From Mobula birostris (taxonomy: Eukaryota): DNA of 64,000 nucleotides. The position numbers were made by a program, and so were the translations under genes. The notes under the pieces were generated by a model, which was not told the origin of the DNA, did not search any database, and worked only from the letters and a program-made list of their open reading frames with translations. Positions within the stretch are counted from its first letter, which is position 1, and each line of letters opens with the position of its first letter. The stretch spans positions 16,795,258-16,859,257 of the forward strand of contig NC_092386.1 in the NCBI RefSeq assembly GCF_030028105.1. The letters run 5' to 3'. Below are positions 1-54,451 of the stretch, in pieces.

Positions 1-150
1 AGTCTCAGGGCTGGGTGTGTTTGCACCCGCGACCCGCACCACCCTTTCCCCCGCCAGCCTGGCACTCCTTCTCTGCCACCCGACCCACACCACTCCCACA
101 GCACTCCACCCTCGCCATTCCCAACATCCTTTGTTCCCGCCAGGTTTACA
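1..150 (+). mobile_element. Fragment of the core of the hairpin-ended Tc1-type composite MITE family (same family as 44751-45279 and 54452-55000)
   Basis: gtctcagggctgggtgtg...cactccaccctcgccattcccaacatcctttgttcccgc aligns by eye to about 54768-54905. Confidence 0.7.
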
Positions 151-4934: not shown

Positions 4935-5045
4935 GCACGCAAAATGCTAGATGAACTCAGCAGGCCAAGCAGCATCCGCAGAGGAGAATAAACAGTCAAT
5001 GTTTCATGTTGAAACCCTTCATCATCTGCAGAATCTCTTGTGTTT
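4935..5045. mobile_element. Short two-ended PLE remnant
   Basis: Minus-strand arm with a decayed hammerhead motif followed by the plus-strand terminal atctgcagaatctcttgtgttt. Confidence 0.6.
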
Positions 5046-8375: not shown

Positions 8376-8511
8376 GTCCTTTGAAAACTAGAAGAACTCG
8401 TAAGCTTGCTGCCTCAATACAAGAGAGTTTCTTGGTGTATGTCTCATCAAAGAGATGCCACCCCAAATACAGACCATCCCTTCAGTACAGCACTGCCTGG
8501 ATTACATGTAC

Positions 8512-9050: not shown

Positions 9051-10622
9051 TTTGGTCGCAGGAGGAGAGATTTAACTGACAGATCCCTGACTCTGGGTCA
9101 AGAGTGCTGCTACCAGCCAAATTGGCACTTAAGCAGGATACATGCAGGGCTCCAATATAAATCCAATTAATTCCCTGAGCAAAGATAACCTTTGTAGTTC
9201 ATGAATGACAATATAATTAGGTATTTTTTAGAAATAAGCTTTGGGTATTCCACTATTCCCTAGAAAATTCCCTTCTGACCTTCATACAGTATTTTTTTTC
9301 TTCTTTTCATCCTGTTAATTAGAACATTCCATGGTCACTTCTGTAAGCCTCCAGGGTTTAAATAAAATGATTTTGCTATTAATAATGTTGAATATCATAA
9401 TTATAAAACTTATACTTTAAGACATGAAAAATGCATTCTAAAAAGAAAACAGGTATTTCTGATTTCTTTCACATTTAAGACATAGTACAGGGGATTCAGA
9501 TGGAAGATTATATTTATTTTTCATTTGAAGGTAATGGAGTAAGGACTTGCCACAATTACTGTTGCTGATCAGGGCCAGACCAGCACTGCCAGTCACAGCA
9601 CAGTTCACATGCCTTCGATTTTTATGGTGCACAATCTCTACATAGTATGGCTGCTTGCAGATTGCAGTAAACTGCTGCGTTAAGAAACAGCCTCACTGGT
9701 GTTGGTTCCTTATTGTCACATGTATCAAGATAATGTGAAAAGCTTACTGTCTATACTGATCAGATTATTACACACTGCACAGAGTATTTTAACTTTTAAG
9801 GAAACTACAACTCGTGTTCTCAGTATCATTTATTTATTTATTATTATTTGTTTTATTTTGCATTTGCTCAGTTTGTCTTCTTTTGCTCATTGGTTGTTTG
9901 TCAATCTTTGTTTTATGTATAGATTTTCATTGATCCTATTGTATTTCTTTGTTCTAATGTGAATGCCTGCAAAAAATGAATCTCGGGGTAAAATATGGTG
10001 ACATATACATACATTTATAATACATTTACTTTGAACTTTGATTTTCAGGTTAGAACTAAGTAAAATAGTTACAGAGAAAGTGCAGTGCAGGTAAACAATA
10101 AGGTTCAAGATCATAATGAGGTAGATTATGAGGTCAAGAGTCCATCTTTTCTACCAGATTTAGATAACTGTTAGACAGAAGCTCTCCTTAAGTCTGTCGG
10201 TTTGTGCTTTCAGGTTTTTATACCTTCTGGCCGACAGTAGAGGGGAGAAGAGAATTTCCTGGGTGCTTATGGTTCTCGATTAAGCTGGCTGCTTTACCGA
10301 GCCTGCAAGAAATGCAAACAGAGTCCATAAGGAGGATGATTTACACGTTGTGTTGATCTGTGTTCACAACCCTCTGCAAGTTTCTTGCAGTGATGGTTAC
10401 TTGTCAGAATTCATGGCTCTGTCTTAATTGCGCAGTACTTCTTTAACCCAACCTGTGAGTGGATTATTGAAAGGTCAGACTATGGTGGCTGCCACAGAAG
10501 TAAAGTTCTAAAAGTCACAATAAAGTCCTAAAGTCCTTTGGATACTGAAGAATTCTAGTGCCCGCTGCCCCAAATACTGGGCCATTCCTCAGTACAGCAC
10601 TGCCTGGATCACATGTAACATA

Positions 10623-10905
10623 TTCAGTGGCCAGTTTATTAGTTACCTCCTGTACCCAGTAAAGTGGCCACTGGGTGTGTGTTTGGAGTCTTCTGCTGCT
10701 GTAGCTGAGGCACTTCAAGGTTCAACATACTGTGCATTCAGAGATGCTCTTCTGCACACCACTGCTCTAATGCATGGTTACTTGAGTTACTGTCGCCTTC
10801 CTGTCAACTTGAAATAGTCTGGCTATTCTCCTCTGACCTCTCTCATTAACAAGGCAGTTCCACACACAGAACAGCCCCTCGCTGAATGATTTTATGTTTC
10901 TCACA
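10623..10905 (-). mobile_element. Partial Tc1 family A copy, truncated by a PLE 3' fragment (10910-11005)
   Basis: Same left hairpin and body as 8512-8790; followed by cctgctgaagggccttggcccgaaacatcggctg. Confidence 0.75.
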
Positions 10906-14058: not shown

Positions 14059-14835
14059 CACTCAGTGGCTATTTTATTAGGTACAGGAATGGAACCCAGT
14101 GTAGTCTTCTGCTGCTGTAGCCCATCCACTTCAAGGTTTGACGTGTTATGTATTCAGAGATACTCTAACAAGAAGAAATAAAAGCCTGACTACAGGCCGA
14201 AAAATGGTTTCTGGTAAGCTTGGAAGATCACAATGCTTTTGTACTGCCATTATGCTATGGAGTTTAAATCTGAGTAATTAAGTCTCAGTAATAGTAACCA
14301 TAAAACTACCATAAATGATGGTCTTCTGGGAAGTATGTTTGTGGTTTTCTGCTGCTGTAGGCCATCCACTTCAAGGTTCAAAGTGTTGTACATTCAGAGA
14401 TGCTCTTCTGCATACTGCTGTTGTAACGCATGGTTATTTGAGTTACTGTCACCTTCCTGTCAGCTTGAACCTGTCTGGCCATTCTCCTCTGACGTCTCTC
14501 ATCAACAAGGCATTTTCACCTACAGAACTGCTGCTCACTGGATTATTTTGTTTATTGCACCATTCTCTGTAAATACTAGAGACTGCTGTGCATGAAAATC
14601 CCAGGAGATCAGCAGTTTCTGAGAAACTCAAATCACCCCATCTGGCACCAACAATCATTCCACGGCCACAGTCACTTAGATCACATTTCTTCCCCATTCT
14701 GTTGGTCTGAACAACAACTGAACCTCTTTACCACATCTGCATGTTTTTATTTTGCATTGAGTTGCTGCCACATGATTGGCTGATTGGGTATTTGTACTAA
14801 AGTGCGGGTGTACCTAATAAAGTGGCCACTGAGTG
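14059..14835 (-). mobile_element. Internally deleted Tc1 element (family A) retaining the transposase N-terminal HTH remnant
   Basis: Terminal inverted repeats cactcagtggctattttattaggtac / gtacctaataaagtggccactgagtg, TA on the left. ORF 14449..14697 MGKKCDLSDCGRGMIVGARWGDLSFSETADLLGFSCTAVSSIYREW matches the Tc1 paired-like domain pattern. Confidence 0.85.
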
Positions 14836-17285: not shown

Positions 17286-18495
17286 ATACATATCCTAGAC
17301 AGCATTCTTCCCTGAACGGATAATTAGTTAATTTTCTATTTGTGGAATCTCACTAAATGTATATTCATTGCTGTTTTCCTACATAAGCACAGTGACCATG
17401 CTTGAGAAATAATCAAAAATGGTTTTGGAAATTCCATAGGATGAGATAATATGCGAACACATACTTTCCCCTTTATAATCTTCTCTTCCATAGTTGTCTG
17501 GCTTTCTGAGGGGCAGGTGTGAACTTTGAAGATGGGGAGAAATCCGGCTTCCAACGCTATCATGGGAAACAGTCTTTTCCCTTCCTTCTGTTTGCCTTCT
17601 GATTCCTTTGCGGCAAAGCCTCCAAGACAAAGTGCCCCAGCTGGGATACATTATTCAAAATGCTTGATTATAATTGTGTTTTGAAGCCCATCTGGGTCCT
17701 TTTTTCGTTTGTAAACCTGGTTATAATGAAGTCAGCAGGCAAACAGGAAACTAGCCGAAGATTGTCATCCAAAAGCAAAAAGAAAATTAGCGCCACAAGC
17801 TGGATTTCTCAGCTCTGCGTATGAACACAGTTCAACGCCAGGGTTCTGTGTGTATGTAAGTAAATATAACCAGTGCTTTTTGTTTTAAGTATCGTCCCAG
17901 CTGGAATTCACCCACCAGCTTGGCAAAACTGGACTCCCATGTGACTGAATTCCTCCTGCCTTCAGTATTTGTTTTTAGTTTTGATTTGACTAGATGAAGT
18001 CCCATCTCCAATGATCATTATCTGTAAGATGCTAGCCACTTGCATAATAATGTTCCATTGATCGCAGCCAAGAAGGAAAATAGTGATGCAAGCTAAATAC
18101 GGTTTCATTATGCCCCAGAGGCATTATGTTCAGACCTATATATAGGTTATGCTGTTGAAAAGGTTAAGGGAGCAGTCTAATGGCTTAGCAGTAGGCTAAG
18201 CATTCATTTATCAACCCAAAGCCACGGGCTCGATAGCTGTCATTGCAATCTGACTGCCAGGCTGAAATCAGCTTTATTCATTTGTAACCCACGCGGCTAA
18301 ATGGTCCATTTTATATCAGCAGAGTATCTTTTGAATGTGGGAGGAATGCTCTGTAGCTCTTGTTTTTAAATCCATCTTTTATGTTTCCTCAGCTGATCAT
18401 TAGTTCAGTCATTCAGGGTACAGCATCCAATACAGCTCTGTTTTAATCATTTGGATCTGTGGTGAAAATCATTGAAGTGATTTTACTTTTAAAAT

Positions 18496-18702
18496 GACAC
18501 ACACTCAAAATGCTGGAGAAACTCAGCAGGTTGTGCAGCGTCTACAGAGAAGAATAAAGAACTGACATTTCGTGCTGTGACCCTTCAGCAGGAGTCCTGA
18601 TGGAAGGTCTTTGCCCAAAATGTCAGCTTTTTATTCCTGCTGAGCTCCACCAGTAATTTCCGTGTTACTCTGGATTTTCAGCATCTGCAGAATCTCTTAT
18701 GC
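18496..18702. mobile_element. Miniature head-to-head PLE insertion with 13-bp TSD
   Basis: ttacttttaaaat at 18483-18495 and 18703-18715; two inverted PLE 3' ends meet at about 18595. Confidence 0.8.
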
Positions 18703-19864
18703 TTACTTTTAAAATCTTACCAAATGGGAAGACTATTCTAATCGAAGGAGAGGAAAAAGTCATCTACCAGTCCAAACACAGTAAGTCTTTACAAACACAG
18801 AGCCATGCATCTTAACTGATCCTGTTTCAAATCCAGTGAATTTCATTCTATCAAGAGCCAGTTAATTTCAGCCTCTCCATGTCCAGCACATCTTATTTAG
18901 TGCAGATCTGCCTCACCTAATTAATTCAAATCTAATAAAGTAGAAAGTCAGGAAGCTGCGTGCTTCACCCAGTGTCTGTCCAACATAAAACAGCTGCTGC
19001 AAATATAAATGCATTATTATTTAGCAGTGAAGCCATCTCAATCAATCGCAATTTCCAAGAGAAAGTACTGATTGTAAGTGGGATTTAATCATAGGTGAAA
19101 TCTTTATATTGATCAATGTGTATAACAAAAAGAAAGAAAAGCATAAAGAAAGTCTTCTCCGAGGATCATCAGCTTGTCGTGGCGGAGAAGCGTGTGCGTT
19201 TCTGAGATCCCAAGAGTGATGCATTTGGAGTTTAGCTCCTGGTAGGGTCAACCATGGTGGTAAGGTCAAGAAGAAGGTTCCAGACAAAAACCTGAATGGG
19301 GGAGCTGGCGGAAGGTGATGACATACCACAATGTCAGTGATGCAGAGGAAGGCTGTGGCAGTGAAGGTCTCCAGTCATCTTGTGCACCACTCCAATGGAC
19401 TCTGACCCCAATCTGCAAAAGCACTTTATGTATCATTTTGTTTTGTTTTAATGGCAGGAAAAAAACCTTTATAAATCCTAAACTGTATAGCATTAACAGA
19501 TTGAACCAAAGATACCTAATGGCAGCTGAACATTTTCCTAAAATACTCCATGAGTTTCATCATGAAAGTAGACCATGCCCTAATCTTCTAATAGCCTAAA
19601 CTAATTCATTAAAAAATATAATGAAATATATGGGTTGGGGAATCAGGGACAAGGGGGCATACAGTTAAGGTGAGAGGGGAGAGATTTAACAGGTATCTAA
19701 GGAACCATTCTTTCCATGCTGATGATGGTCAGTATATGAATGACTGCCAGAGGAAGTGGTTGTGACAAGTTCAAGTTTAATTGTCATTCAACTGTACATG
19801 TGTACACAGTTAAAGGAGGCATTGTTCCTCTGGGGCCAAGGTACAAAATAGAGTGCATAGTCAT

Positions 19865-20403
19865 TAGGGTTGCCAACTGTCCCGTATTAGCCGGGACATC
19901 CTGTATATTGGGTTAAATTGGTTTGTCCCATACGGGACTGCCCTTGTCCCACATTTCCCCAGCTAAGGTAGAGCGTTCCTGTGAAGCGGTTCGTAAGCGG
20001 AAATGGCATAAAGCGAAGAAGCAATTACCATTAATTTATATGGGAATTTTTTTTGAGCGTCCGCAGACCCAAAAATAACCTACCAAGTCATGCCAAATTA
20101 CACATAAAACCTAAAATAACACTAACATATAGTAAAAGCAGGAATGATATGATAAATACACAGCCTATATAAAGTAGAAATAATGTATGTACAGTCAGGA
20201 AGATTAAGCCAAAACCGATTTGTAGAAAAAAATCGGCATGTACACGCATGTGCACGTCATGTATGCGCACATCACATATGCGCACACAGGTGCCTGAGCA
20301 AGGCTTCACGGTCATGGTAGTCTTTCTCGGGGTAAACACAAGTGTCTCGTATTTGACTGCCTCTTTTGTCCCTTATTTGGGAGTGAGAAAGTTGGCAATC
20401 CGA
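19865..20403. mobile_element. hAT-type non-autonomous DNA transposon
   Basis: Terminal inverted repeats tagggttgccaact / agttggcaatccga; 8-bp TSD atagtcat 19857-19864 / atagtcac 20404-20411. Confidence 0.8.
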
Positions 20404-20577
20404 ATAGTCACACACAGCACATATAGTTAGGATAGCACATATAGTTAGGATGGCACATACAGTCACATAAAGTATTATTAACCCAAGTCCCTGAGAGGCA
20501 TGGCCTGCATATTGATGCAACACACATCAAAGTTGCTGGTGAATGCAGCAGGCCAGGCAGCATCTGTAGGAAGGGGT

Positions 20578-20620
20578 GCAGTCGACGTTTCAGGCCGAGA
20601 CCCTTCGTCAGGACTAACTG
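20578..20620 (-). ncRNA. Minimal type I hammerhead ribozyme motif in the PLE 3' region
   Basis: Minus strand UAGUC-CUGACGA-AGGGUCUCGGCCU-GAAA-CG-UC-GACUG: catalytic core, helix I UAGUC/GACUG, short helix II, palindromic ACGU in place of helix III. Confidence 0.75.
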
Positions 20621-20908
20621 AAGGAAGAGTGAGTAAGGGATTTGAAAGTTGGAGGGGGAGGGGGAGATCCAAAATGATAGGAGAAGACAGGAGGGGGAGG
20701 GATAGAGCCAAGAGCTGGACAGGTGATTGGCAAAAGGGGATACGAGAGGATCGTGGGACAGGAGGTCCAGGAAGAAAGACAAGGGGGGGGGAACCCAGAG
20801 GATGGGCAAGAGGTATATTCAGAGGGACAGAGGGAGAAAAAGGAGAGTGAGAGAAAGAATGTGTGCATAAAAATAAGTAACAGATGGGGTATGAGGGGGA
20901 GGTGGGGC

Positions 20909-22946
20909 CTAGCGGAAGTTAGAGAAGTCGATGTTCATGCCATCAGGTTGGAGGCTACCCAGACGGAATATAAGGTGTTGTTCCTCCAACCTGAGTGTGG
21001 CTTCATCTTTACAGTAGAGGAGGCCGTGGATAGACATGTCAGAATGGGAATGGGATGTGGAATTAAAATGTGTGGCCACTGGGAGATCCTGCTTTCTCTG
21101 GCGGACAGAGCGTAGATGTTCGGCAAAGCGGTCTCCCAGTCTGCGTCGGGTCTCGCCAATATATAAAAGGCCACATCGGGAGCACCAGACGCAGTATATC
21201 ACCCCAGTCGACTCACAGGTGAAGTGTTGCCTCACCTGGAAGGACTGTTTGGGGCCCTGAATGGTGATAAGGGAGGAAGTGTAAGGGCATGTGTAGCACT
21301 TGTTCCACTTACACGGATAAGTGCCAGGAGGGAGATCAGTGGGAAGGGATGGGGGGGACGAATGGACAAGGGAGTTGCGTAGGGAGTGATCCCTGCAGAA
21401 TGCAGAGGGGGGGGAGGGAAAGATGTGCTTAGTGATGGGATCCCGTTGGAGGTGGCGGAAGTTACGGAGAATAATATGTTGGACCCGGAGGCTGGTGGGG
21501 TGGTAGGTGAGGACCAGGGGAACCCTATTCCTAGTGGCCTGGTGGGAGGATGGAGTGAGAGCAGATGTACGTGAAATGGGGGAGATGCGTTTAAGAGCAG
21601 AGTTGATAGTGGAGGAAGGGAAGCCCCTTTCTTTAAAAAATGAAGACATCTCCCTCGTCCTAGAATGAAAAGCCTCATCCTGAGAACAGATGCGGCGGAG
21701 ACGGAGGAATTGCGAGAAGGGGATGGCGTTTTTGCAAGAGACAGGGTGAGAAGAGGAATAGTCCAGATAGCTGTGAGAGTCAGTAGGCTTATAGTAGACA
21801 TCAGTAGATAAGCTGTCTCCAGAGAGAGAGACAGAAAGATCTAGAAAGGGGAGGGAGGTGTCGGAAATGGACCAGGTAAACTTGAGGGCAGGGTGAAAGT
21901 TGGAGGCAAAGTTAATAAAGTCAATGAATTCTGCATGCGTGCAGGAAGCAGCGCCAATGCAGTCGTCGATGTAGCGAAGGAAAAGTGGGGGACAGATACC
22001 AGAATAGGCACAGAACATAGATTGTTCCACAAACCCAACAAAAAGGCAGGCATAGCTAGGACCCATACGGGTGCCCCTAGCTACACCTTTAGTTTGGAGG
22101 AAGTGGGAGGAGCTAGAGGAGAAATTATTAAGAGTAAGGACTAATTCCGCTAGACGGAGCAGAGTGGTGGCAGAGGGGAACTGATTAGGTCTGGAATCCA
22201 AAAAGAAGCGTAGAGCTTTGAGACCTTCCTGATGGGGGATGGAAGTATATAAGGACTGGACATCCATGGTGAAAATAAAGCGGTGAGGGCCAGGGAACTT
22301 AAAATCATCGAAAAGTTTAAGAGCGTGGGAAGTGTCACAAACATAGGTAGGAAGGGATTGAACAAGGGGTGATAAAACAGTGTCGAGGTATGCAGAAATG
22401 AGTTCGGTGGGGCAGGAGCAAGCTGAGACAATAGGTCGGCCAGGACAGGCAGGTTTGTGGATCTTGGGTAGGAGGTAGAAACGGGAAGTGCGGGGTGTGG
22501 GAACTATAAGGTTGGTAGCAGTGGATGGGAGATCCCCTGAGCGGATAAAGCCGGTGATGGTGTGGGAGACAATGGCCTGGTGCTCCTTAGTGGGGTCACG
22601 ATCGAGGGGTAAATAAGAGGAGGTATCCGCGAGTTGTCGCTGTGCCTCGGCAAGGTAGGGGTTATTACGCCAGACTACAACAGCACCCCCCTCATCGGCG
22701 GGTTTAATAATAAGGTTAGGATTAGTGCGGAGGGAGTGGAGAGCAGAGCGTTCGGAAGGAGTGAGGTTGGAATGGGGACAAGGTGCGGTGAAGTCAAGAC
22801 GGTTGACGTCCCGTCGGCAATTAGCGATAAAGAGATCCAGAGCAGGCAGAAGACCAGAGCGGGGTGTCCATGAAGAAGAGGAGGGTTGAAGACGGGAGAA
22901 GGGGTCATCGGTGGGGGTAGAAGAGTCCTTGCCGAAGAAGTAGGCA
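20909..22946 (-). CDS. Penelope-like reverse transcriptase plus GIY-YIG endonuclease, 5'-truncated but open for about 678 codons
   Basis: IIKPADEGG, FYLLPKIHK, GRPIVS, TMDVQSLYTSIP, GVARGTRMGP, LRYIDD, FLDL, and VIYCVWCSRCGLLYIGETRRRLGDRFAEH. The MKPHSG start in the ORF track comes from an inserted fragment. Confidence 0.93.
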
Positions 22947-23022
22947 CCTGAGTGTGGCTTCATCTTTACAGTAGAGGAGGCCGTGGATAGACATGTCAGA
23001 ATGGGAATGGGATGTGGAATTA

Positions 23023-23221
23023 CCCCCAGCCTCCCCCCTCCCCCCTCTGATCCCAGCTCTCATCCGTGCCGGGTCTTTACCATCCCCTCCGACCTTCAAC
23101 TGTCGGAGGCAGAATGCTCTGTTCTCAGTAAGGGCCTGACCTTTGTCCCCCTTCGCCCACACCTCAGCGAGTTCCGTGTTCGCCACGATGCGGAACTTTT
23201 CTTCCGCCGTCTCCGTCTCCG
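23023..23221 (+). mobile_element. Inverted PLE ORF segment immediately upstream of the RT arm
   Basis: LSEAECSVLSKGLTFVPLRPHLSEFRVRHDAELFFRRLRLR, whose natural continuation AYFFGKDSS starts at 22946 on the opposite strand. Confidence 0.85.
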
Positions 23222-23532
23222 GAGGTTGGTGAGAATGTGGACTGAGTTGCCAGTGGAAATAGTGGATGTAGGTTTGATTTCAATATTTAAAAGCAATTTT
23301 GATTGGTGCATGGATGGGAGCAGTTTGGAAGGCTACCGTCCGGGTGCAGATCGATGTAACTAGGCAGATTAATAGCTTAACATAGATTAAATGGGCCGAA
23401 GAGCCTGCCTCTGTGATGTAGAGTCATAACACAATGACTCTATAATGAAATTGAATTATTAATTACTAATCAAGTCAAGAGTGACATATCTGAAGCCATA
23501 GCTGATGAAATACTTCAAATTACCACACAGGA
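23222..23532 (-). repeat. Inverted near-identical copy of host segment 25298-25608 embedded in the PLE insertion
   Basis: 311 bp; I found only two mismatches by eye. Confidence 0.93.
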
Positions 23533-24285
23533 CGAGGGAGATGTCTTCATTTTTTAAAGAAAGGGGCTTCCCTTCCTCCACTATCAACTCTGCTCTTAAA
23601 CGCATCTCCCCCAATTCACGTACATCTGCTCTCACTCCATCCTTCCGCCACTCCACTAGGAATAGGGTTCCCCTGGTCCTCACCTACCACCCCACCAGCC
23701 TCCGGGTCCAACATATTATTCTCCGTAACTTCCGCCACCTCCAACGGGATCCCACCACTAAGCACATCTTTCCCTCCCCCCCCCCTCTGCATTCCGCAGG
23801 GATCGCTCCCTACACAACTCCCTTGTCCATTCGTCCCCCCCCATCCCTCCCCACTGATCTCCCTCCTGGCACTTATCCGTGTAAGTGGAACCAAGTGCTA
23901 CACATGCCCTTACACTTCCTCCCTTACCACCATTCAGGGCCCCAAACAGTCCTTCCAGGTGAGGCAACACTTCACCTGTCAATCGACTGGGGTGATGTAC
24001 TGCGTCCGGTGCTCCCGATGTGGCCCTTTATATATTGGCGAGACCCGACGCAGACTGGGAGACCGCTTTGCTGAACATCTACGCTCTGTCCGCCAGAGAA
24101 AGCAGGATCTCCCAGTGGCCACACATTTTAATTCCACATCCCATTCCCATTCTGACATATCTATCCACGGCCTCCTCTACTGTAAAGATGAAGCCACACT
24201 CAGGTTGGAGGAACAACACCTTATATTCCGTCTGGGTAGCCTCCAAACTGATGGCATGAACATCGACTTCTCTAACTTCCGCTAA
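23529..24285 (+). pseudogene. Second PLE arm: thumb/linker and GIY-YIG coding remnant with frameshifts
   Basis: ORFs 23505..24074 and 23959..24285 match the C-terminus of 20909..22946 (RTREMSSFFKERGF...YIGETRRRLGDRFAEH...MNIDFSNFR). Confidence 0.9.
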
Positions 24286-24575
24286 TGCCCCACCTCCCCC
24301 TCGTACCCCATCTGTTACTTATTTTTATGCACACATTCTTTCTCTCACTCTCCTTTTTCTCCCTCTGTCCCTCTGAATATACCTCTTGCCCATCCTCTGG
24401 GTTCCCCCCCCCCCTTGTCTTTCTTCCCAGACCTCCTGTCCCATGATCCTCTCGTATACCTTTTGCCAATCACCTGTCCAGCTCTTGGCTCCATCCCTCC
24501 CCCTCCTGTCTTCTCCTATCATTTTGGATCTCCCCCTCCCCCTCCAACTTTCAAATCCCTTACTCACTCTTCCTT

Positions 24576-24618
24576 CAGTTAGTCCTGACGAAGGGTCTCG
24601 GCCTGAAACGTCGACTGC
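24576..24618 (+). ncRNA. Minimal type I hammerhead ribozyme motif in the PLE 3' region
   Basis: tagtc CTGACGA (24585-24591) agggtctcggcct GAAA (24605-24608) cg TC gactg. Confidence 0.75.
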
Positions 24619-25389
24619 ACCCCTTCCTACAGATGCTGCCTGGCCTGCTGTGTTCACCAGCAACTTTGATGTGTGTTGCTTGAATTTCCAGCATCTGCAG
24701 AATTCCTGTTGCCTGCATATTGATGTTGTCCTGGAGACACACTTCTGCAAGAACAAACACACAGCAGTTCCTCATCTCGCCCTGTGTCAGCAGGTTAACA
24801 CTGAACAGCAGGCACATTAACAGCATTTAAAAGGTATTTAGACAGGTGCATAGAAATGGTTCAGATGGAAAAGGGACAGTTGTGGGCAAATAAGACCACA
24901 AGACCATAAGGTACAGGAGCAGAGTTAGGCCTTTGGCCCGTCAAATCTGCTCCACCATTTCATCATGGCTGATCCAATTTTCCTCTCAGCCTCAATTTCC
25001 TGCCTTCTCCCTGTATCCCTTCATGCCTTGACCAATCAAAAATCTAGCTTAGCTAGGAATCTTGGTTAGTATGAAGCAGTTGGGGCAAATGGCCTGTTTC
25101 CATACTGTAGTAGTTTATGAAAAATATCTGCAGTATATGCTTTTGCCTTATCTACATTGGACAGCAACATAAACATATTGATAGGTGATGTTAATTCGAA
25201 GGAAGCTTAATTTATTCCAATGGCATTTTGTTCAGTAATAATCAAAATTTGACAGTAGAAAGTAATGTTGGATCCAAATGTTCTGAAAATTTTAGTTTCC
25301 TGTGTGGTAATTTGAAGTATTTCATCAGCTATGGCTTCAGATATGTCACTCTTGACTTGATTAGTAATTAATAATTCAATTTCATTATA

Positions 25390-26105
25390 GAGTCATTGTG
25401 TTATGACTCTACATCACAGAGGCAGGCTCTTCGGCCCATCTAATCTATGTTAAGCTATTAATCTGCCTAGTTACATCGATCTGCACCCGGACCGTAGCCT
25501 TCCAAACTGCTCCCATCCATGCACCAATCAAAATTGCTTTTAAATATTGAAATCAAACCTACATCCACTATTTCCACTGGCAACTCAGTCCACATTCTCA
25601 CCAACCTCTGAGTGAAGCCGTTCCCCCTCATGTTCCCAATAAATACTTCACCTTTCATCTTTAACCCATGACCTCTAGTACTGTATAGTCTCATCCAACC
25701 ACAGTGGAAAATGATTGCTTACCCACATAATTTTGTATACCTCTATCAAATCTCCCCTCACTCTCTTACGCTGTAGGGAATAAAGTCCAAACCTGTTCAA
25801 ACTTTCTAATAACTCTCAAGTCGTCAAGTCCCTGCAACATCCTTGTTAATTTTCTATGTAGTCTTTCAATCTTTCCTGTAGATAGCTGATCAAAGCTGCA
25901 CACAATACCCCAGATTAGGCCTCACCAACATTTTATACAACTTATACATAACATCCCAACTCCTGTACTCAATTCTGTGATTTATGAAGGCCAAAGTGCC
26001 AAAAGCTCTCCTTATAACTCTATCTACCTGTAATGCCACCTTCAAAGAATTATGGATCTGTATTCCTAGATCCCTCCATTCTACTGCACTCCCCAGTGCA
26101 GTACA
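25390..26105 (-). mobile_element. CR1 3' fragment
   Basis: RDLGIQIHNSLKVALQVDRVIRRAFGTLAFI...LYKMLVRPNLGYCVQL; FTQRLVRMWTELP. Confidence 0.85.
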
Positions 26106-27859
26106 TTGAGTTTTTAAAACCAACAAACAACTTAAAGAATGCCACACAAGCAAATTCTTTTAGAAATTCCTGCAACACAAGTTGAAGGCAGATGAATGGT
26201 TTGGTCCAATCATCTATCTATAGTATTCTTGATGGCCTGCAATGTTTATATTCCACTAACAGCCTATTATGCACCAATGCTTCCAATACTTTCTCCTTCC
26301 TAATACAGGCATGCACCAGAATATTCAGCAGACCCCTCCCTTAACTCTTCAGCCTCCGCATCCCTCTTCCTGGTGAATATTGATAAGAAGCATTTATCTA
26401 AGACCTCACTCATCCAGATCCTAACATAAATCAGCCCTTTGTTCTCTAGTGGGAACTGCTTTTTCCTTACCTACGCTATGGCTTATAACATCCTTATGAA
26501 GGGCTTTAGGGTCATGGTGGGGAGGGGTCTGTTTGTGATAGACTAGTCTGTATTCACCACTATCTTTAATTCAGTATATCAGTATAGATTAGTAATAGCA
26601 GGATTCTCTCTAATGCTACCTGTCAAGGATACCTTCATGGAAATTTCGCTTGCGGTCTTCTTTTAAGGTAGTTGGTTAGGTTAGGCAGCTGGTAAAGGTG
26701 AACCTAATATAGGCACCATTTCTTTGGATTTTGGAATTGAATTTTGAGTTTATGAACATGATAAAAACAATTTCCAATATGTGGAAGATACAGGAACAAG
26801 CATGGGTAGAGTAGGAAAACAAAATGGAGAACTTAAGTCCAATGAACAGGAGACAGGAAGCCAGTGCAGTGCAGTACTAAAAGGGTGATGTATATGGAAT
26901 AATCACACACTCATCATGTCCAACACAATAACATCCATGACATATGTCCAGGTCAAGCCTGGGGCAACATATTTCTTCAAAAGTTTCAATTGCAATGATA
27001 TGAGAACAGAGTTAACGAATGGAAAAATGGATAAAGAGCAGGACAATAGTCAAAGAAACGTAAATTTATTATCAAGGTACATATATATTACCATATACTG
27101 CTTTGAGATTTATTTTCTTGCAATGGAATACAATGGAATTTATTAAAAAAGCCAAACATTAAACAAAACTGACAATCAATGTGCAAAAGAAGACAAACTG
27201 AGGAAATGAAAAATAAATAATAGTGACAACGTTTTGTAAAATCCTTGAAAGTGAGCCTGTAGATTGTACAATCAGTTCAGAGTTGATCTGAGTTAAATTA
27301 TCCACACCAGTTCAGGAGTCTGATAGCTGGGGGGGGGGGGGGCAGGGTGGTATGGCCTGGATGATTTTGAGTCCTTGATGATTGATGCTGCTTTCCTGTG
27401 GCAGCGCTCCATGTAAATATGTTCAATGGTGGGGAGGGATTCACCTGTATCCACCGCTTTCTGTAGATCAATATATCAGTATAGATCAGTAGTGGCGGAC
27501 ACTAAAATTGAACATGGGTCATATATATTAACAAAGTCTGAGTGAGAAGGAGAGGATGCACCATCTCTGGCTAAGTATGTTTAATGGGGGTAGAAATATT
27601 TTTGAATTGATTACTGAGTAAACTATTATCATATGGGCAAGTGCCCCACCAGGAGATTATTTTTTCTTGATCTCACACTGTGGAAGTCTGTATGCAGGTA
27701 CAGATTAATGATGTATAAAATATTGGATAAGGTCTCCGGTATAGAAACTTGGTAGACACAATGGGCCAAGTGGCCTACTTCACTCTATGATTTGATGAAA
27801 AACTATGAAGGGTTATAGCATCTGTGAAAACTCACCAGGCTCTGATGAAAAATATTCCT

Positions 27860-28529
27860 AAAATCATGAAAAGAAATAATGAAAGCAATTTTCTAATCAC
27901 CTCTGGCTAGAGGAAGTGATGGCTGAGGGCTGGGAGACTGCTAATATTGTACAGTAGTTTAAAAGAGAAGGAAAAAAGATAATCAAAAGAATTAAGGGCC
28001 AGTCAGATTAACAGATGGACAAATAATTGAAATTCATTCCAAGGGATTGTGGAGATCATTATTTCAATTGGCACTGTTTAATCAGGGGCAATCATTCTTT
28101 TTCTGAATAATACTTCACTTATGTTTTTGAAGAAGTAGCAAAGGGGGTCATTGAGGGCAATGCATTCAATATAGTCTACTCGGATTTCAGCAAGGCTTTT
28201 GACAAGCTTCAACGTGACATGATTTCAAAACAAAAGGCTGCATCCAAGGAAGAGGGGCCAATTGGGCCTAAGGTTGGCTCAGTGACAGATAGAAAAGGAA
28301 CATTGTTCATCGGTGTTTTTTGCGACTGTACCTCTCAGGACTAGCCTTTTGATTTTGTAATAAACGCTAATAATTTAGATAAAGGTGTGGGGACATTGAT
28401 AGGGCAGTTTACAGGATTCAAGCAATTGGCCATGCAATTAAAAGTGAGGAAGACAGGCTGAGATAGCAGGAATGCATAAATAATCCAGTGAGTTTGGCAT
28501 CAAAACAATAACTAGAATTTAATCCAGAA
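27860..28529 (+). mobile_element. Old CR1 RT remnant, outermost layer of a nest; resumes at about 33570-33600
   Basis: gatttcagcaaggcttttgacaag (DFSKAFDK); gaatttaatccagaa followed after the nest by aagtgtgaagtattgcac (EFNPE-KCEVLH). Confidence 0.7.
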
Positions 28530-30204
28530 AAACATAGAAACATAGAAAATAGGTGCAGGAGTAGGCCATTTGGCCCTTTGAGCCTGCACCGCCATTCACT
28601 ATGATCATGGCTGATCATCCAACTCAGAACCCTGTACCAGCCTTCCCTCCATACCCCCGATCCCTTTAGCCACAAGGGCCATATCTAACTCCCTCTTAAA
28701 TACAGCCAATGAACTGGCCCCAACTGTTTCCTGTGGCAGAGAATCCCACAGATTCACCACTCTCTGTGTGAAGAAGTTTTTCCTAATCTCAGTCCTAAAA
28801 GGCTTCCCCTTTATCCTCAGACTGTAACCCCTCGTTCTGGACTTCCCCAACATCGGGAACAATCTTCCTGCATCTAGCCTGTCCAATCCCTTTAGGATTT
28901 TATACGTTTCAATAAGATCTCCCCTCAATCTTCTAAATTCCAACAAGTATAAGCCTAGCCGATCTAGTCTTTCATCATATGAAAGTCCTGCCATCCCAGG
29001 AATCAACCTGGTGAACCTTCTTTGTACTCCCTCTATGGCAAGAATGTTTTTCCTCAGATTAGGGGACCAAAACTGCACACAATACTCCAGGTGTGGTCTC
29101 ACCAAGGCCTTGTACAACTGCAGTAGTATCTCCCTGCTCCTGTACTCAAATCCACTTGCTATGAATGCCAGCATACCATTCGCCTTTTTCACCGCCTGCT
29201 GTACCTGCATGCCCACTTTCAATGACTGGAGAAGCTGACAGTGATGCAGGTGGATGCTTTCCTGGTGTCAAGGATTCTTGATTACCTGACTGGCAGACCG
29301 CAGTACGTGTGCTTGCAACACTGTGTGTCCAACAGAGTGATCAGCAGCACTGGGGCTCCACGGGGGACTGTCTTTTATCCCTTTCTCTTCACCATTTACA
29401 CCTCGGACTTTAACTACTACACAGAGTCTTGTCATCTTCAGAAGTTTTCTGATGACTCTGACATAGTTAGATGCATCAGCAAGGGAGATGAGGCTGAGTA
29501 CAGGGCTATGGTAGGAAACTTTGTCACATGGTGTGAGCAGAATTATCTGCAGCTTAATGTGAAAAAGACTAAGGAGCTGGTGGTAGACCTGAGGAGAGCT
29601 AAGGTACCGGTGACCCCTGTTTCCATCCAGAGGGTCAGTGTGGACATGGTGGTGGATTACCAATACCTGGGGATACGAATTGACGATAAACTGGACTGGT
29701 CAAAGAACACTGAGGCTGTCTACAAGAAGGGTCAGAGCCGTCTCTATTTCCTGAGGAGACTGAGGTCCTTTAACATTTGCCGGACGATGCTGAGGATGTT
29801 CTACGAGTCTGTGATGGCCAGTGTGATCATGTTTGCTGTTGTGTGCTGGGGCAGCAGGCTGAGGGTAGCAGACACCAACAGAATAAACAAACTCATTCAT
29901 AAGGTCAGTGATGTTGTGGGGATGGAACTGGACTTTCTGACTGCGGTGTCTGAAAAGAAGATGCTGTCCAAGTTGCATGCCATCTTGGTCAATGTCTTCC
30001 ATCCACTACATAATGTACTGGGTGGGCACAGGAGTACATTCAGCCAGAGACTCATTCCACTGAGATGCAACACAGAGTGTCATAGGAAGTAATTCCTGCC
30101 TGTGGCCATCAAACTTTACAACTCCTTCCTTGGAGGGTCAGACACCCTGAGCCAATAGGCTGGTCCTGGACTTATTTCCTGGCATAATTTACATATTACT
30201 ATTT

Positions 30205-33200
30205 ATAATGATAGAGCAGAGGAAAGGGAAAACAGAAATAAATCTAAGATAGTGAGCAGTAAAGCTGTCAGGAAAGACAGGCAGGTGATGGGGCAAATTT
30301 GTAGCCATTGGGATGAGTTGCAGTGCAATAAAGTTGCAGTGAAATCAAAGCAAAAAGTATCAAATACTGGTCTTAAGGTGTTGTACTTAAATGCACGCAG
30401 CATAAGGAATAAGGTGGATGATCTTGTTGTACAGCTACAGATTGGCAGGTATGATATTGTGGCCATCACTGAGATCTGGCTAAAGGATGCATGTCTCTGG
30501 GAGCTGAACGTCCAAGGATACACGGTGTATCAGAAGGATAGAAAGGTAGGCGGAGGGGGAGGCGTAGCTTTGTTGGTAAGAAATGATATTAAATCATTAG
30601 AAAGAGGTGATATAGGATCGGAAGGTGCAGAATCTTTATGGGTTGAGCTAAGAAATCGCAGGGGTAAAAGGACCCTGATGGTAGTTATTTATAGGCCTCC
30701 AAACAGCTGCAGGGATGTGGACTACAAATTACAACTGGAAATAGAAAAGGCTTATCAGAAGGGCAGTGTTATGATAATTGTGGGGGATTTTAACATGCGA
30801 GTAGATTGGGAAAATCAGGTCAGCACTGGATCTCAAGAGAGAGAATTTGTAGAATGTCTGCAAGATGGCTTTTTAGAACAGCTTGTTGTTGAGCCTACTA
30901 GGGGATCAGCTGTACTGGATTGGGTATTGTGTAATGAACTGGAGGTGATTGGAGAGATTGAGGTGAAGGAACCCTTAGGAGGCAGTGATCATAACATGAT
31001 TGAGTTCACTGTGAAATTAGAAAAAGAGAAGCCGAAATCTGATGTGTCGGTATTTCAGTGGAGTAAAGGAAATTACAGTGGCATGAGAGAGGAACTGGCC
31101 AAAGTTGACTGGAAAGAGACACTGGCGGGAAAGACAGCAGAGCAGCAGTGGCTGGAGTTTATGTGAGAAATGAGGAATGTGCAAGACAGGTATATTCCAA
31201 AAAAGAAGAAATTTTTGAGTGGAAAAAGGATGCAATCATGGTTGACAAGAGAAGTCAAAGCCAAAGTTAAAGCAAAAAAGAGGGCATACAAGGAAGCAAA
31301 AATTAGTGGGAAGAGAGAGGATTGGGAAGTTTTTAAAACCTTACAAAAGGAAACCAAGAAGGTCATTAAGAGAGAAAAGATTAACTATGAAAGGAAGCTA
31401 GCAAATAATATCGAAGAGGATACTAAAAGCTTTTTCAAGTATATAAAGATTAAAAGACAGGTGAGAGTAGATATAGGACCGATAGAAAATGATGCTGGAG
31501 AAATTGTAATGGGAGATGAGGAGATGGCAGAGGAACTGAACAAGTATTTTGCATCAGTCTTCACTGAGGAAGACGGCAGTGTACTGGACACTCAAGGGTG
31601 GCAGGGAAGAGAAGTGTGCGCAGTCACAATTATGACAGAGAAAGTACTCAGGAAGCTGAATAGGCTGAAGGTAGATAAATCTCCTGGACCAGATGGAATG
31701 CACCCTCATGTTCTGAAGGAAGTAGCTGTGGAGATTGCAGAGGCATTAGCGATGATCTTTCAAAAGTCGATAGTTTCTAGCATGGTTCGGAGGACTGGAA
31801 GATTGCAAATGTCACTCCGCTATTTAAGAAGGGGGCAAGGAAGCAAAAAGGAAATTATAGACCTGTTAGCTTGATATCTGTGTTTGGGAAGTTGTTGGAG
31901 TCGATTGTCAAGGATGAGGTTACAGAGTACCTGGAGGCATATGACAAGATAGGCAGAACTCAGCATGGATTCCTTAAAGGAAAATCCTGCCTGACAAACC
32001 TATTACAATTTTTTGAGGAAATTACCAGTAGGCTAGACAAGGGAGATGCAGTGGATGTTGTATATTTGGATTTTCAGAAGGCCTTTGACAAGGTGCCACA
32101 CATGAGGCTACTTAACAAGATAAGAGCCCATGGAATTACGGGAAAGTTACATACGTGGATAGAGCGTTGGCTGATTGGCAGGAAACGGAGAGTGGGAATA
32201 AAGGGATCCTATTCTGATTGGCTGCCGGTTACCAGTGGTGTTCCACAGGGATCAGTGTTGGGGCCGCTTCTTTTTACATTGCACATCAACGATTTAGATT
32301 ATGGAATAGATGGCTTTGTGGCTAAGTTTGCTGACGATACGAAGATAGGTGGAGGGGCCGGTAGTGCTGAGGAAACGGAGAGTCTGCATAGAGACTTGGA
32401 TAGATTGGAAGAATGGGCAGAGAAGTGGCAAATGAAGTACAATGTTGGAAGGTGTATGGTTATGCACTGTGGCAGAAAAAATAAACGGGCAGACTATTAT
32501 TTAAATGGGGAAAGAATTCAAAGTTCTGAGATGCAACGGGACTTGGGAGTCCTCGCACAGGATACCCTTAAAGTTAACCTCCAGGTTGAGTCAGTAGTGA
32601 AGAAGGCGAATGCAATGTTGGCATTCATTTCTAGAGGAATAGAGTACAGGAGCAGGGATGTGATGTTGAGGCTCTATAAGGCGCTGGTGAGACCTCACTT
32701 GGAGTACTGTGGGCAGTTTTGGTCTCCTTATTTAAGAAAGGATGTGCTGACGTTGGAGAGGGTACAGAGAAGACTCACTAGAATGATTCCGGGAATGAGA
32801 GGGTTAACATGTGAGGAATGTTTGTCCGCTCTTGGACTGTATTCCTTGGAGTTTAGAAGAATGAGGGGAGACCTCATAGAAACATTTCGAATGTTAAAAG
32901 GCATGGACAGAGTGGATGTGTCAAAATTGTTTCCCATGATGGGGGAGTCTAGTACAAGAGGGCATGACTTCAGGATTGAAGGGCGCCCTTTCAGAACAGA
33001 AATGCGAAGAAATTTTTTTAGTCAGTGGGTGGTGAATCTATGGAATTTGTTGCCACGGGCAGCAGTGGAGGCCAAGTCATTGGGTGTATTTAAGGCAGAG
33101 ATTGATAGGTATCTGAGTAGCCAGGGCATCAAAGGTTATGGTGAGAAGGCGGGGGAGTGGGACTAAATAGGAGAAAATGGATCAACTCATGATAAAATGG

Positions 33201-33272
33201 TGGAGCAGACTCGATGGGCTGAATGGCCTACTTCTGCTCCTTTCTCTTGTGGTCTTATGGTCTTATGGTCTT
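30205..33272 (+). mobile_element. CR1 LINE with an essentially complete ORF2; innermost layer of the nest
   Basis: Inserted in the Rex 3' UTR; ends in a (ggtcttat)n tail at about 33250-33272. Confidence 0.92.
30252..33166 (+). pseudogene. CR1 ORF2 (APE endonuclease plus reverse transcriptase), broken by one stop (31164-31166) and a frameshift near 31790
   Basis: YLNARSIRNK, VAITE, IYRPP, VGDFN, LDWVL, GSDHNMI; KSPGPDGMHP; YLDFQKAFDKV, GVPQGSVLGP, KFADDTK. Confidence 0.92.
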
Positions 33273-33614
33273 AACTATTTATGGTTTTATTACTATTTAA
33301 TTATTTATGGTGCAACTGTAACGAAAACCAATTTCCCCCAGGATCAATAAAGTATGCATATGACTATCACTATGACTATCTATACAATGACACGCAGGTC
33401 TCGTTGCACTTCCCCTTTTCCTAATCAGCCACCATTCAGATAATAATCTGTTTTCCTGTTCTTGCCACCAAAGTGGATAACCTTACATTTATCCACATTA
33501 AATGGCATCTGCCATGAATTTGCCCACTCAGCTAACCTATCCAAGTCACCCTGCATCCTCCTCACAGCTAACAGAAGTGTGAAGTATTGCACCCAGAAGG
33601 GCATGGAATCACAG

Positions 33615-34772
33615 AGTAATACATCCCTTACAGGTCCTTCAGCTGGAGACCACGCCGACTACGGTTCCCACCCGGATAGTCCCAATTTCCTGTGTTTAGT
33701 CAGCCATATCCCTCTAAGCCCCATACCTTCACGTACCTATCCAAGTCCTTCTTAAATGTGCTATTGTACTTGGCTCAACCACTTCTTCTAGATGCTCATT
33801 CCAAATACTCACACCCTCTTCCCCCCTCTGCACCCTCACACCCAAAATTTATGCCCCCATCGTTCTGGTCTTTCCTACCTTTGGAGAATATTACTGTCCT
33901 CTCATAATTTTACACATTTCTATACTGTCATCTCTCGTTTCGAAGAGTAGAGACCTAGCCTGGCCAATTTCTCTCTCTAGTCCTGGCAACACCATTGTAA
34001 ATATTTTCTACTCTCTTTACAGTTTAACCACATCCTTCCTATAACAGGGTGGCCAAAACTGTACATTATACTCTGAATGCGGCCTCACCAATGACTTATA
34101 CAGTTGCAACATAATATCCCAACTCCTAAGGGTCTCAGCCCGAAATGTCAACTGTTTGTTCATTTCCATTGATGCTGTCTGACCTGCTGAGTTCCTCCAG
34201 CATTCTGTGTGTGTTCCTGTACTCAGTGCCCTGATGGATGAAGGGCAGCATGCTGAACACCATTTTCAATATACTGTCTTCCTAGGATACTGCTTTCAAT
34301 GAACTATGCACTTGTATTCCTAGGTGCCTCGGTTCCATTACACTCACTTGTGCCCTACCACTCATAGCATAAGTCCTACACTAGTCTGACTTCCCAAAAT
34401 ACACCAACCCCTGTGGCACACCACTAATAACCAGCCTCCATTCCAAGAAACGACCTTCAGCCACCAACAAGAGAAAATCTGCAAATGCTGGAAATCCGAC
34501 TAAAGTCCTGCCAAAGGGCTTTGGCCCAAAATGTCGACTGTATTTTTTTTCCACAGATGCTGCCTGGCCTGCTGAGTTCCTCTAGCATTTTGGGTGTGTG
34601 GCTTCAACCACCCCTCTGCTTCCTACCTCTGAGCCAACTTTGAATCCACTTAACTCGCTCTTCCTGGATTCCATGGGACTCAACCTCATGGATCAGCTTT
34701 CTGAGCAGGATGTTGTCAAAGGCCTTGCTAATGTCCAAATAGGTGACATCCACTGCCCTACCCTCATCTAGA
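33615..34772 (-). mobile_element. Older CR1 fragment hosting two PLE 3'-end insertions (34129-34215 and 34466-34601)
   Basis: Decayed reverse-complement RT motifs such as ttgtcaaaggccttgctaatgtccaaat (LDISKAFD). Confidence 0.7.
34466..34601. mobile_element. Miniature two-ended PLE insertion with 11-bp TSD
   Basis: Flanked by cttcagccacc / cttcaaccacc; the left arm is the inverted terminal ~32 nt and the right arm runs from the hammerhead motif to ...tgtgtgg. Confidence 0.7.
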
Positions 34773-39000: not shown

Positions 39001-40786
39001 GAACCCCATAATGAAGGTGAGTTCATTGACAATGGGAATGTCGATTCCACTTTTGCAATGGCACGGTAGTGTTGCAATTAGTACGATCCCTTTACAGCAC
39101 CAATCGTCACTGATTGGGGTTCGATTCCCATCACTGCCTGTAAAGATTTGTTCTCCCTGTAACTGTGTGGGTTTCCTCCGGGAGCACTGGTTTCCTCCCA
39201 CAATCCAAAGGTGTACAGTTAGGCTTAGTGAGTTGCCGGCGCACTATGTTGGAACCAGAAGCGTGGCAACATTTTCAGGCTGCCTCCCAGCGCCTTCACA
39301 GACTATGTTGGTTATGGACGTAAACAAAGCATTTTACTGTATTTTTCAAAGTTTCAATGTATCATTAACAAATTAAATTAGTCTTAATGCCTTCAGATAT
39401 GCTGTGCTGAAGAGCTGGCTGCACATTACATCACAACGCATCTGTTTCATCAGCTTTACTCCAACCATCGCTAGCACGTGGGTTGGCGCAGTACCATAAC
39501 AGTGTGTGTAACACTATTACAGCGCCAGTGACTTATTTTTAAGTTAACGTTTATGACTTTTGTTTAACGATTTCTATATTTTGCAATAAATTAATCGATT
39601 TGAATTGCTTTTATGCACCTCCGACCATAGACATTTAAAAGCAGTTCAATACCCTTTAACAACAGCAGACTGTCAAAAGGCCGGCAGAGCAGTCTGGCGA
39701 TAGGACCTCAGAAGCTGCTAACTGAGGTCTGGTTGCTCCTTGCAGGCTACTCTGTTTCATGGGACAGTACTGACCGTGAATAATGCTGCTCGACTCACCC
39801 TGCAGGTCCACAGAAAGGGTGGCTCTGGGTTTAGCACATGTGAAAGACATGAAGTATTTATTAGATTTGGAATGACCTAACCTGTAGCGCATATAATTAT
39901 TTTTTCTCTGAAGAACTTAAAAATATCAAAAATATCGACCCTGATGCCATAGATTTTGTTGATGGGAAAAGTCTCAGAAATTTCAAGGGATGCACCATGA
40001 CCTTTTGCTCTTCATTTAAAAAAGTATTTTCCTTCCCAGACTTCCAAACCTCTTCTTATCCAATTTCGTGCAATACAAGATAAACAAAATGTCAGATGAA
40101 ATCACAGTATGGAGTATCGATTTGATCTACAGAAAAGACATATAGCTTGCAGTAAATGCCCACCTGAAATCTCCCTTTCCAGGCAGCTAAATTGAAGCTT
40201 GATATACACCAGTGACCATTAACAATTTGGCCAAATATAGGATAAACATTTCAAATTTATGTGTTGCTGGGAGCCGTAAGTGGACTCATTCCCATTTTGC
40301 TGAATTACTGATACCTCTTCAAAGTTTTTTTTTCCACTTAGGTGCAAAGTAAAATTGAGTGTTTTAGATTGGCTGAATGATTCAGCAGTTCAAAAAATTG
40401 GATCAATATAGAAACATTGTCTCAGTTTCCCATCATTCTGCAAAATCATAGTCAGAGAGTACTGTAGCACAAAAACAGGCCCTTTGGCCCATCTAGTCCA
40501 TGCCGAATTATTATTCTGCTTAGTCCATCAACTTGCACCCAGACCATACCCTCCAAACCCCTCCCATTCTTTTACACCATTCCAATACAAAGGAATTTTG
40601 TGCATCAAAGACCGGAGAAATTCAATCATTCCTGAATAGCAGTGTGACTCTGATATTTTACAGTAGACGTATTCATACAGGTGAGGTCTTGATGTGAGTT
40701 TGGATTATGATTGCAATGTAAAAGCTCAGACACGTTTACAAATCCCAGACACCTCCTTATATTAAAGCAGCACTTGTCACATCAAA

Positions 40787-40932
40787 AACACGAGAGATTC
40801 TGCAGATGCTGGAAATCCAGAGCAGCATACAAAATGCCAGAGAAACTTAGCAGGTCAGGCAATATTTGTAGAGGGGATTCTGGCTTCTTCCCCTTTCCTT
40901 TCCAGTCCTGATGAAAGGTCTTGGCACGATTA
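40787..40932. mobile_element. Miniature two-ended PLE insertion with 11-bp TSD
   Basis: gtcacatcaaa at 40776-40786 and 40933-40943; inverted full 3' end on the left, plus-strand hammerhead fragment on the right. Confidence 0.75.
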
Positions 40933-40959
40933 GTCACATCAAATAGACTTTGAATTTAG

Positions 40960-54236: not shown

Positions 54237-54397
54237 ACACAAGAAATTCTGCAGATGCAAGGAATCCAAAGCAAGACATACAAAATGCTGGAGGCATTCA
54301 GTCGGTCAGGTAGCATCTATGGAAATGAATAAACTATCAGCGTTTTGGGCCGAGTCCTGAAGAAGGGCGTCGGCCTGAAACTTCAACTGCATATTCG
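54237..54397. mobile_element. Miniature head-to-head PLE insertion with perfect 13-bp TSD
   Basis: tttacaattctgg at 54224-54236 and 54398-54410; two inverted arms meet within their hammerhead motifs at about 54355. Confidence 0.82.
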
Positions 54398-54451
54398 TTT
54401 ACAATTCTGGTCCCCCTTTAACATGAGAAGTGTAAATTCAACAACATTATA

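Follow-up and report, generated by a model that had tools for sequence, protein, structure and literature searches.

The window analysed here is a stretch of 64,000 nt from the Mobula birostris genome (NCBI RefSeq assembly GCF_030028105.1, contig NC_092386.1, positions 16,795,258 to 16,859,257 of the forward strand) that carries several insertions of a Penelope-like element (PLE). The largest, at 20518-24710, comprises two inverted, 5'-truncated copies of one element that lie head to head with their 3' ends facing outward. An initial annotation of this DNA had placed the end of the left arm at 20518 and that of the right arm 32 nt further along the element, at 24710, and both positions were confirmed by an exact 15-bp target-site duplication (TSD). 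The same combination of a short and a long end had been seen in three smaller insertions (18496-18702, 34466-34601 and 4935-5045), all of which held up, the last with a degenerate TSD. The description of 40787 and 54237 as long ends with a partner truncated earlier was also correct, both insertions being bounded by exact TSDs. Positions on the element are given below as p, where p = 0 is the final G of the short end (24678 in the window). On this scale the partner ends at 40787 and 54237 lie far upstream (the alignment stops at p -81; about p -60 by eye).

Identity of the element

The 716-residue frame of the left arm matched the Pfam families RVT_1 at residues 253-368 (E = 2.9e-4) and GIY-YIG at residues 619-693 (E = 8.7e-4), both below the curated cut-off. 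Two full-length homologs (P0031 and P0006) clear the RVT_1 cut-off, and P0031 also clears that for GIY-YIG. The layout is that of an endonuclease-containing (EN+) PLE, one open reading frame (ORF) that contains a reverse transcriptase (RT) followed by a C-terminal GIY-YIG nuclease. Relatives numbered 965 among 7999 scored candidates, the closest named ones being those of rays and sharks. The DKG motif, ADKGG, is invariant in 54 aligned sequences and reads ADEGG in the window copy. The CCHH motif is present (VIYCVWCSRCGLLYIG followed by two His, with both Cys between GIY and YIG), and a CKWNKCYTC linker (CX4CXXC) lies between the RT and the endonuclease in the window frame. In the available text of PMC8557442, EN+ PLEs are defined by the DKG and CCHH motifs, and the Neptune and Nematis clades by a CX2-5CXXC linker between RT and endonuclease. 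The CX4CXXC linker and the CCHH motif therefore place the element: judged by its motifs, it is a Neptune/Nematis-type PLE under these definitions. Membership of the Penelope/Poseidon clade was considered and ruled out by the presence of the linker.

The structural hallmarks of PLEs were also found, namely a pseudo-long terminal repeat (pseudo-LTR) formed by a partial tandem, an inverted truncated copy, a tail of 30-40 nt, and a TSD. A natural full-length copy (L175/L371) contains a 340-nt pseudo-LTR, a tail that runs into the ORF with an ATG at p +73, downstream of the tail, and a 3510-nt unit that ends short, within a 12-bp TSD. Because the tail continues into the ORF in this copy, both ends correspond to internal positions of the template. 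Both of these presumptive start sites carry a TGTTG motif. In the 4.0-Gb genome a 21-mer just upstream of the short end of this young family had 63,100 exact matches and a 24-mer from the tail had 27,254; a 25-mer of an older family had 35,060.

Two end registers and their pairing

The 3' ends were surveyed at 501 anchors in 316 merged stretches (1.43 Mb), made up of search loci and 180 stretches chosen by place, and pair types were counted in these stretches. The initial annotation had proposed that the distribution of end positions be examined over all copies. This distribution was bimodal and not continuous: among 361 young arms at loci that no long-end query had selected, 176 ended short (p -12 to 14) and 172 long (p 27 to 55), with 5 between the two classes, 6 earlier and 2 running on.

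After 28 anchors at locus edges were discarded, the remaining TSD-bounded anchors (304) collapsed to 192 unique insertions; the TSD caller reached its threshold in 0 of 400 shuffled flank pairs. These insertions comprised 122 long+short pairs, 8 pairs of a long end with an upstream-shifted end (p -25 to -61) and 62 single-armed insertions, of which 39 ended long, 22 short and 1 at an intermediate position. Neither long+long nor short+short pairs were present among the 130 two-armed insertions, and exactly one tail was found in 130/130. Random pairing would give 122/122 long+short with a probability of 0.5^122 = 2e-37, and 105 of the 122 came from stretches not selected by the tail alone. The orientation of the long+short insertions was 65 versus 57. 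Where one end was aberrant it was never the long one (8 long+shifted, 0 short+shifted). Unbiased solo anchors were about equally long (24) and short (21), so neither register is always the first to be used. When abutting pairs were counted regardless of a TSD (n = 137), 126 were long+short, 3 long+long, 2 short+short and 6 other. The large element of the window is absent from the census of 192 insertions since the host insert at its centre interrupted the block search, and it was checked separately.

Three minus/plus neighbours among 100 consecutive tail matches were candidates for long+long pairs and were rejected on inspection. One (L372) consists of two separate single-arm insertions, each with its own TSD; the second (L373) is a long+short pair with a separate long-ended copy; the third (L374) is a short+long insertion with a partial tandem. 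A separate composite locus (L006/L041, G000:C28:63669696-63672846) is enclosed by one TSD and comprises a short arm, a direct copy that ends short, some 400 nt of DNA not belonging to the element, and a copy that ends long; it is possibly a case of host DNA captured between repeats.

The older family behaved similarly, with 96 short and 93 long ends among 211 arms. Its pairs within 400 bp were 20 long+short, 2 short+short, 0 long+long and 2 other, and its neighbour pairs overall (n = 40) were 28 long+short, 4 short+short, 1 long+long and 7 other; where a pair spans more than 400 bp, its members are in many cases probably unrelated. All 10 TSD-confirmed pairs of this family had one long end (9 long+short, 1 long+shifted). 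Unbiased solo anchors were about equally long (24) and short (21), so neither register is always the first to be used.

Target geometry and arm lengths

The TSDs measured 10-19 bp with a mode of 14. On the usual reasoning for target-primed insertion, a TSD outside two outward-facing 3' ends implies two nicks, each of whose 3' ends was used as a primer. Counted from either TSD edge, positions -8, -7 and -3 of the target flank are rich in A, and no position differed below p = 0.05 between the edge at the long arm and that at the short arm. As the base profile is alike at both edges, the asymmetry does not lie in the DNA. Short ends met an intact TSD without a gap in 105/120. Microhomology with the TSD averaged 1.54 nt at short ends (n = 111) and 1.29 nt at long ends (n = 95), versus 0.68 nt in simulation; ends with more than one unaligned base (9 short, 27 long) do not enter these means. 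Paired ends are indeed offset, though typically by more than the consistent 30 nt or so given in the initial annotation (median 38 nt; 10-90%: 30-47). Neither end is a single base: each forms a cluster some 15 nt wide, and the two end positions of a pair are uncorrelated. The earlier proposal of two defined start registers on the RNA, one for each target strand, is strongly supported by the bimodal ends, the strict pairing, the TSD-abutting ends, the excess of microhomology and the read-through template, and it agrees with what was seen in vitro for the anole element.

The 5' ends of the arms (n = 244) piled up at p -100 to -93 (49 ends), the 5' edge of a minimal hammerhead-like motif (24578-24585 in the window), and 14 fell at p -68 to -61, the predicted cut. 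Ribozyme cleavage as the chief cause of the 5' stops is thus unsupported. The pile-up may mark the 5' end of the RNA; beside it stands TCAGT, which we take to be an initiator-like motif. The core motif by which the two hammerhead-like sequences of the large element were read is likewise what we take to be that of hammerheads, and an Rfam search of the window gave no hammerhead match. The fold of 191 nt around the ends was not unusually stable (z -0.91). A possible stem of 6 bp spans the tail (24682-24705 in the window): over 287 tails it was paired in 95% of cells, as against 84% after a shift by one, and one of its pairs shows compensation (T-A 205, A-T 28, T-T 43, A-A 3). The stem is weak and differs from the minimum-energy fold predicted for the commonest tail, and its compensation may be a single lineage change; it is a hint of structure only.

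One template or two

Paired arms often come from different template haplotypes, which weakens the idea of a single RNA. Polymorphic transversions differed between the arms of an insertion in 24/293 comparisons, against a background of 0.47%, and 21 pairs carried a transversion mismatch where 2.4 were expected. Nine pairs differ at 3-10 sites, and those sites are linked with one another across arms. In insertions with tail type A, 52/271 polymorphic sites were discordant between arms (112.6 expected if the arms were independent). In tail type B, where the same sites are fixed, 2/85 differed; the sites are therefore not hypermutable, and hypermutability was rejected as the cause of the discordance, which is confined to the one tail type. 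A two-class mixture assigned 0.29-0.32 of pairs (interval 0.19-0.45) to independent templates. As RNAs that derive from one source cannot be told apart, this fraction gives a minimum for two-RNA events. The mismatches could also have arisen through tandem transcripts, jumps between templates or ectopic gene conversion. Pairs with differing haplotypes remain long+short. The initial annotation had suggested a single RNA-protein complex; one complex fits these data, while one RNA templating both arms fails for some insertions, as the mismatches in tail type A indicate.

Proposed mechanism and alternatives

We infer, with somewhat more confidence than doubt, that a single RNA-protein complex, asymmetric and equipped with two RT centres (one for each target strand), makes the insertions, often working on two RNAs. 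Such a complex would hold two nuclease and two polymerase centres, the latter at the tail-end site and about 36 nt upstream, and would sit on the target in either orientation. Its two GIY-YIG domains would nick both strands about 12-14 bp apart, giving two 3' ends, each of which would anneal over a few bases to an internal UGUUG-type site of the RNA, one in the long register and one in the short. Both cDNAs would be extended toward the 5' end of the RNA, in many cases halting at the 5' edge of the hammerhead-like motif. Their ends would then be fused head to head by host end-joining, at times with DNA from nearby captured between them. Single-arm insertions would result where one of the arms failed or was lost. 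The more specific version, in which an asymmetric complex of two RNAs and two polymerases primes both strands of a symmetric double nick simultaneously, with one polymerase fixed at the tail-end site of the first RNA and the other 36 nt upstream on the second, and is possibly tied together by a dimer-type hammerhead, is put forward tentatively. If the two-RNA complex were correct, every insertion would be two-armed, and one architecture would account for the mosaic haplotypes and the inverted repeats as well as the tail.

The central junction of the large element illustrates the joining of cDNA ends by host repair. Its second piece is 200 nt of inverted template from just upstream of the stop of the left arm. 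This adjacent inversion adjoins the third piece (23222-23532), an inverted 311-nt copy, 99% identical, of host flank at 25298-25608, about 590-900 nt beyond the insertion. The host copy looks like a templated insertion made during joining.

Several points weigh against a two-RNA complex. At ten transversion sites the arms of the same insertion were discordant in only 28/357 comparisons (7.8%, versus 36% in shuffled pairs), and rare variants were common to paired arms 20 times, versus 1.9 in shuffled pairs. The length classes of the arms are coupled in both tail types (39 pairs with both arms longer than 120 nt, 66 with both shorter, 17 mixed), and a single RNA explains this coupling and the sharing of haplotypes simply. 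Among pairs of long arms the short-ended arm reaches further in 27 versus 12 (p = 0.024), as a leading polymerase on a single RNA would. The five like-with-like abutting pairs exist, although none has a TSD (Fisher p = 5.5e-5). In the anole PLE studied in PMC11167929, start sites were, according to the available text, alike on both strands, a bulk measure compatible with random orientation. The sampling was concentrated in the first 30 Mb of one contig (C1), and 169 of the 501 anchors had no TSD at threshold and were left unclassed (90 long, 69 short, 10 other).

One of the five like-with-like pairs lies inside a larger insertion, short...long and TSD-bounded, of which it forms the inner part. 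Like-with-like head-to-head loci were seen at L145:1432-2232, L293:3425-4271, L382:3499-3600 and L113:2416-2642, each lacking a TSD. Such pairs are possibly products of recombination, or of two separate events with target loss.

Twin priming on a single RNA is the main alternative, possible though less probable. A dimer would sit on the two tandem start sites, the upstream polymerase leading and the tail-primed one following by displacement, and haplotype mismatches would be ascribed to template jumps, tandem transcripts of unlike units or later gene conversion. Strict long+short pairing then needs no extra assumption; the presence of TGTTG at both sites and the coupled arm lengths agree with it, as do some long arms that stop at the short site and the 16/25 long pairs in which the partner falls within the closest tenth of arms. 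Yet a stop no more than 25 nt from the short site is seen in only 10/122 long arms. The nine pairs with 3-10 linked differences also argue against one RNA, those of one pair (L204) being spread from p -1143 to -48, and discordance is already present near the start (12/55 at p -48, 10/53 at p -60).

An unlikely alternative is that both arms start at the long site and that a nuclease or repair removes one tail before joining, which corresponds to the 'EN-mediated resolution' in the available text of PMC8557442. End-joining could produce the microhomology at short ends, and short ends do spread further upstream than long ends (to p -14, with 8 at -25 to -61). Removal of a tail does not account for the 22 single-arm, TSD-bounded insertions that end short or for the gap-free abutment of short ends on an intact TSD, and the anole enzyme initiates at both sites in vitro, as the accessible part of PMC11167929 describes. 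Fold-back self-priming, in which one cDNA turns back and is copied short of its own tail (a related idea appears in the consulted portion of PMC3846280), is very improbable as a general account, even though it predicts head-to-head arms, a one-sided tail and correlated lengths. It requires the short arm to be nested in the long one. The long arm does extend past the short one in 42/122 pairs, but the short arm passes the 5' stop of the long arm by more than 5 nt in 67/122 (by more than 100 nt in 29); fold-back is therefore excluded for those and could hold only for a subset. The arms should, moreover, be identical at birth, yet many differ in haplotype. Two independent complexes or separate insertions that share a cut and choose start sites at random, for which the even division of ends overall and the five like-with-like pairs without TSDs might speak, predict a ratio of 1:2:1 where 0:122:0 was observed, and are refuted for TSD-bounded insertions.

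Relation to known systems

L1 twin priming, reportedly described by Ostertag and Kazazian, has both strands priming cDNA and leaves an inversion inside one TSD; its segments are said to be adjacent and non-overlapping, with a variable second site. In the present element, unlike L1, the two arms are copies of one and the same region begun at two fixed registers, and their haplotypes often differ. L1-type twin priming was rejected as an explanation, given that in nearly all 122 pairs the two arms cover the same region upstream of p 0; a few long arms are tail-only.

A short terminal tail on PLEs, which the initial annotation took as established, is indeed published. The available parts of Craig et al. 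2021 (PMC8557442) and Arkhipova et al. 2013 (PMC3846280) describe an EN+ PLE unit with an inverted 5'-truncated copy and a 30-40 bp tail on one side, and the consulted text of PMC8969392 gives the same structure; a 34-bp repeat in Drosophila Penelope appears in the available text of PMC2377424. The one-sided tail is thus common to published PLEs and the present element. In the portions of these papers at hand, however, the tail is optional or frequent and is ascribed to endonuclease resolution or self-priming, whereas here it is strict and fold-back fails for most pairs.

The closest biochemical counterpart is Poseidon of Anolis carolinensis, for which Frangieh et al. 2024 (PMC11167929) describe, in the part available, two internal RT start sites in vitro that bound the tail, cutting and extension of both target strands, and a predicted dimer. 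The start sites lie near the start of the ORF, as in the present element, and downstream of a hammerhead motif, for which the present element has a hammerhead-like candidate. Anole Poseidon belongs to a different clade, the CX2-5CXXC linker being absent in Penelope/Poseidon and present here, and on the sense strand its start sites are AC-rich, in contrast to the GU-rich sites found here. The available text of that study reports no homology at the start, and pairing there was not measured on single molecules; here pairing is strict and microhomology of 1-3 nt is in excess. For the hammerheads, the accessible text of Cervera and de la Pena 2014 (PMC4209133) describes a minimal hammerhead with a palindromic helix III region in the PLE terminal repeat and hammerhead pairs 100-700 bp apart on opposite strands, for which dimeric folding was proposed. 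Arm 5' ends here peak at the 5' edge of the hammerhead-like motif, not at the predicted cut.

A literature search for the pairing rule returned no pairing count and no two-template test, and older PLE papers may state more. The asymmetry itself is already published; the strict use of one site per strand, the symmetric target profile and the mixed templates appear to be new constraints. They turn a qualitative remark on a one-ended tail into a rule, with random use of the sites excluded, and make testable the mechanism of tandem and inverted PLE insertion, which is called open in the available text of PMC8557442 and PMC11167929. Its tens of thousands of young copies make this genome a natural experiment on a large scale. 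Should two RNAs be involved, PLEs would be set apart from R2 and L1 by making double-ended insertions from two templates, with consequences for the annotation of repeats in shark and ray genomes and for retroelement engineering.

Other features of the window

Table 1. Coordinates of the Penelope-like insertions in the window and of their parts.
Feature	Position	Strand	Remark
Left TSD copy, large element	20503..20517	+	exact 15-bp repeat of 24711-24725
Left arm, PLE copy truncated at its 5' end, short 3' end (p 0) outward	20518..22945	-	97.2% to L371 over 2428 nt
Minimal hammerhead-like motif, left arm	20580..20615	-	read from sequence
716-codon open frame with RT, CX4CXXC linker and GIY-YIG nuclease with CCHH	20909..23059	-	element-derived up to 22945
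Composite central junction	22946..23532		three pieces, including a 77-nt element piece
Right arm, 5'-truncated PLE copy, long 3' end	23529..24710	+	sequence comparison
Minimal hammerhead-like motif, right arm	24581..24616	+	core motif read by eye
32-nt tail separating the two start registers	24679..24710	+	runs into ORF start in L175/L371
Right TSD copy, large element	24711..24725	+	exact 15-bp match to left copy
Older-family mini insertion, short (left, p -2) + long (right, p 37)	18496..18702		exact 13-bp TSD 18483-18495 = 18703-18715
Older-family mini insertion, tail-only long arm (left, p 5..36) + short (right)	34466..34601		TSD 34455-34465 / 34602-34612, 10/11
Older-family mini insertion, short + tail-only long arm	4935..5045		degenerate TSD 4918-4930 / 5048-5060, 10/13
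Long arm + partner ending within hammerhead motif	40787..40932		exact 11-bp TSD 40776-40786 = 40933-40943
Long arm + partner ending just beyond hammerhead motif	54237..54397		exact 13-bp TSD 54224-54236 = 54398-54410

Just to the left of the large element, a separate insertion at 19860-20400 has terminal inverted repeats (tagggttgcca...tggcaatcc) and resembles a non-autonomous DNA transposon. At 8461-8760, 10568-10867, 14224-14523 and 63112-63314 lies a dispersed repeat, about 300 nt long and with a hairpin inside; it is probably a miniature inverted-repeat transposable element or a short interspersed element, and weak, sub-threshold Rfam matches to mir-9256 fall within it at 8509-8575 and 10616-10682. 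Broken endonuclease and RT frames are present at 30159-33166 (+), 28605-30092 (-), 5829-6596 (-) and 49938-50546 (-), which by their motifs we take to be copies of CR1-type and other long interspersed elements.

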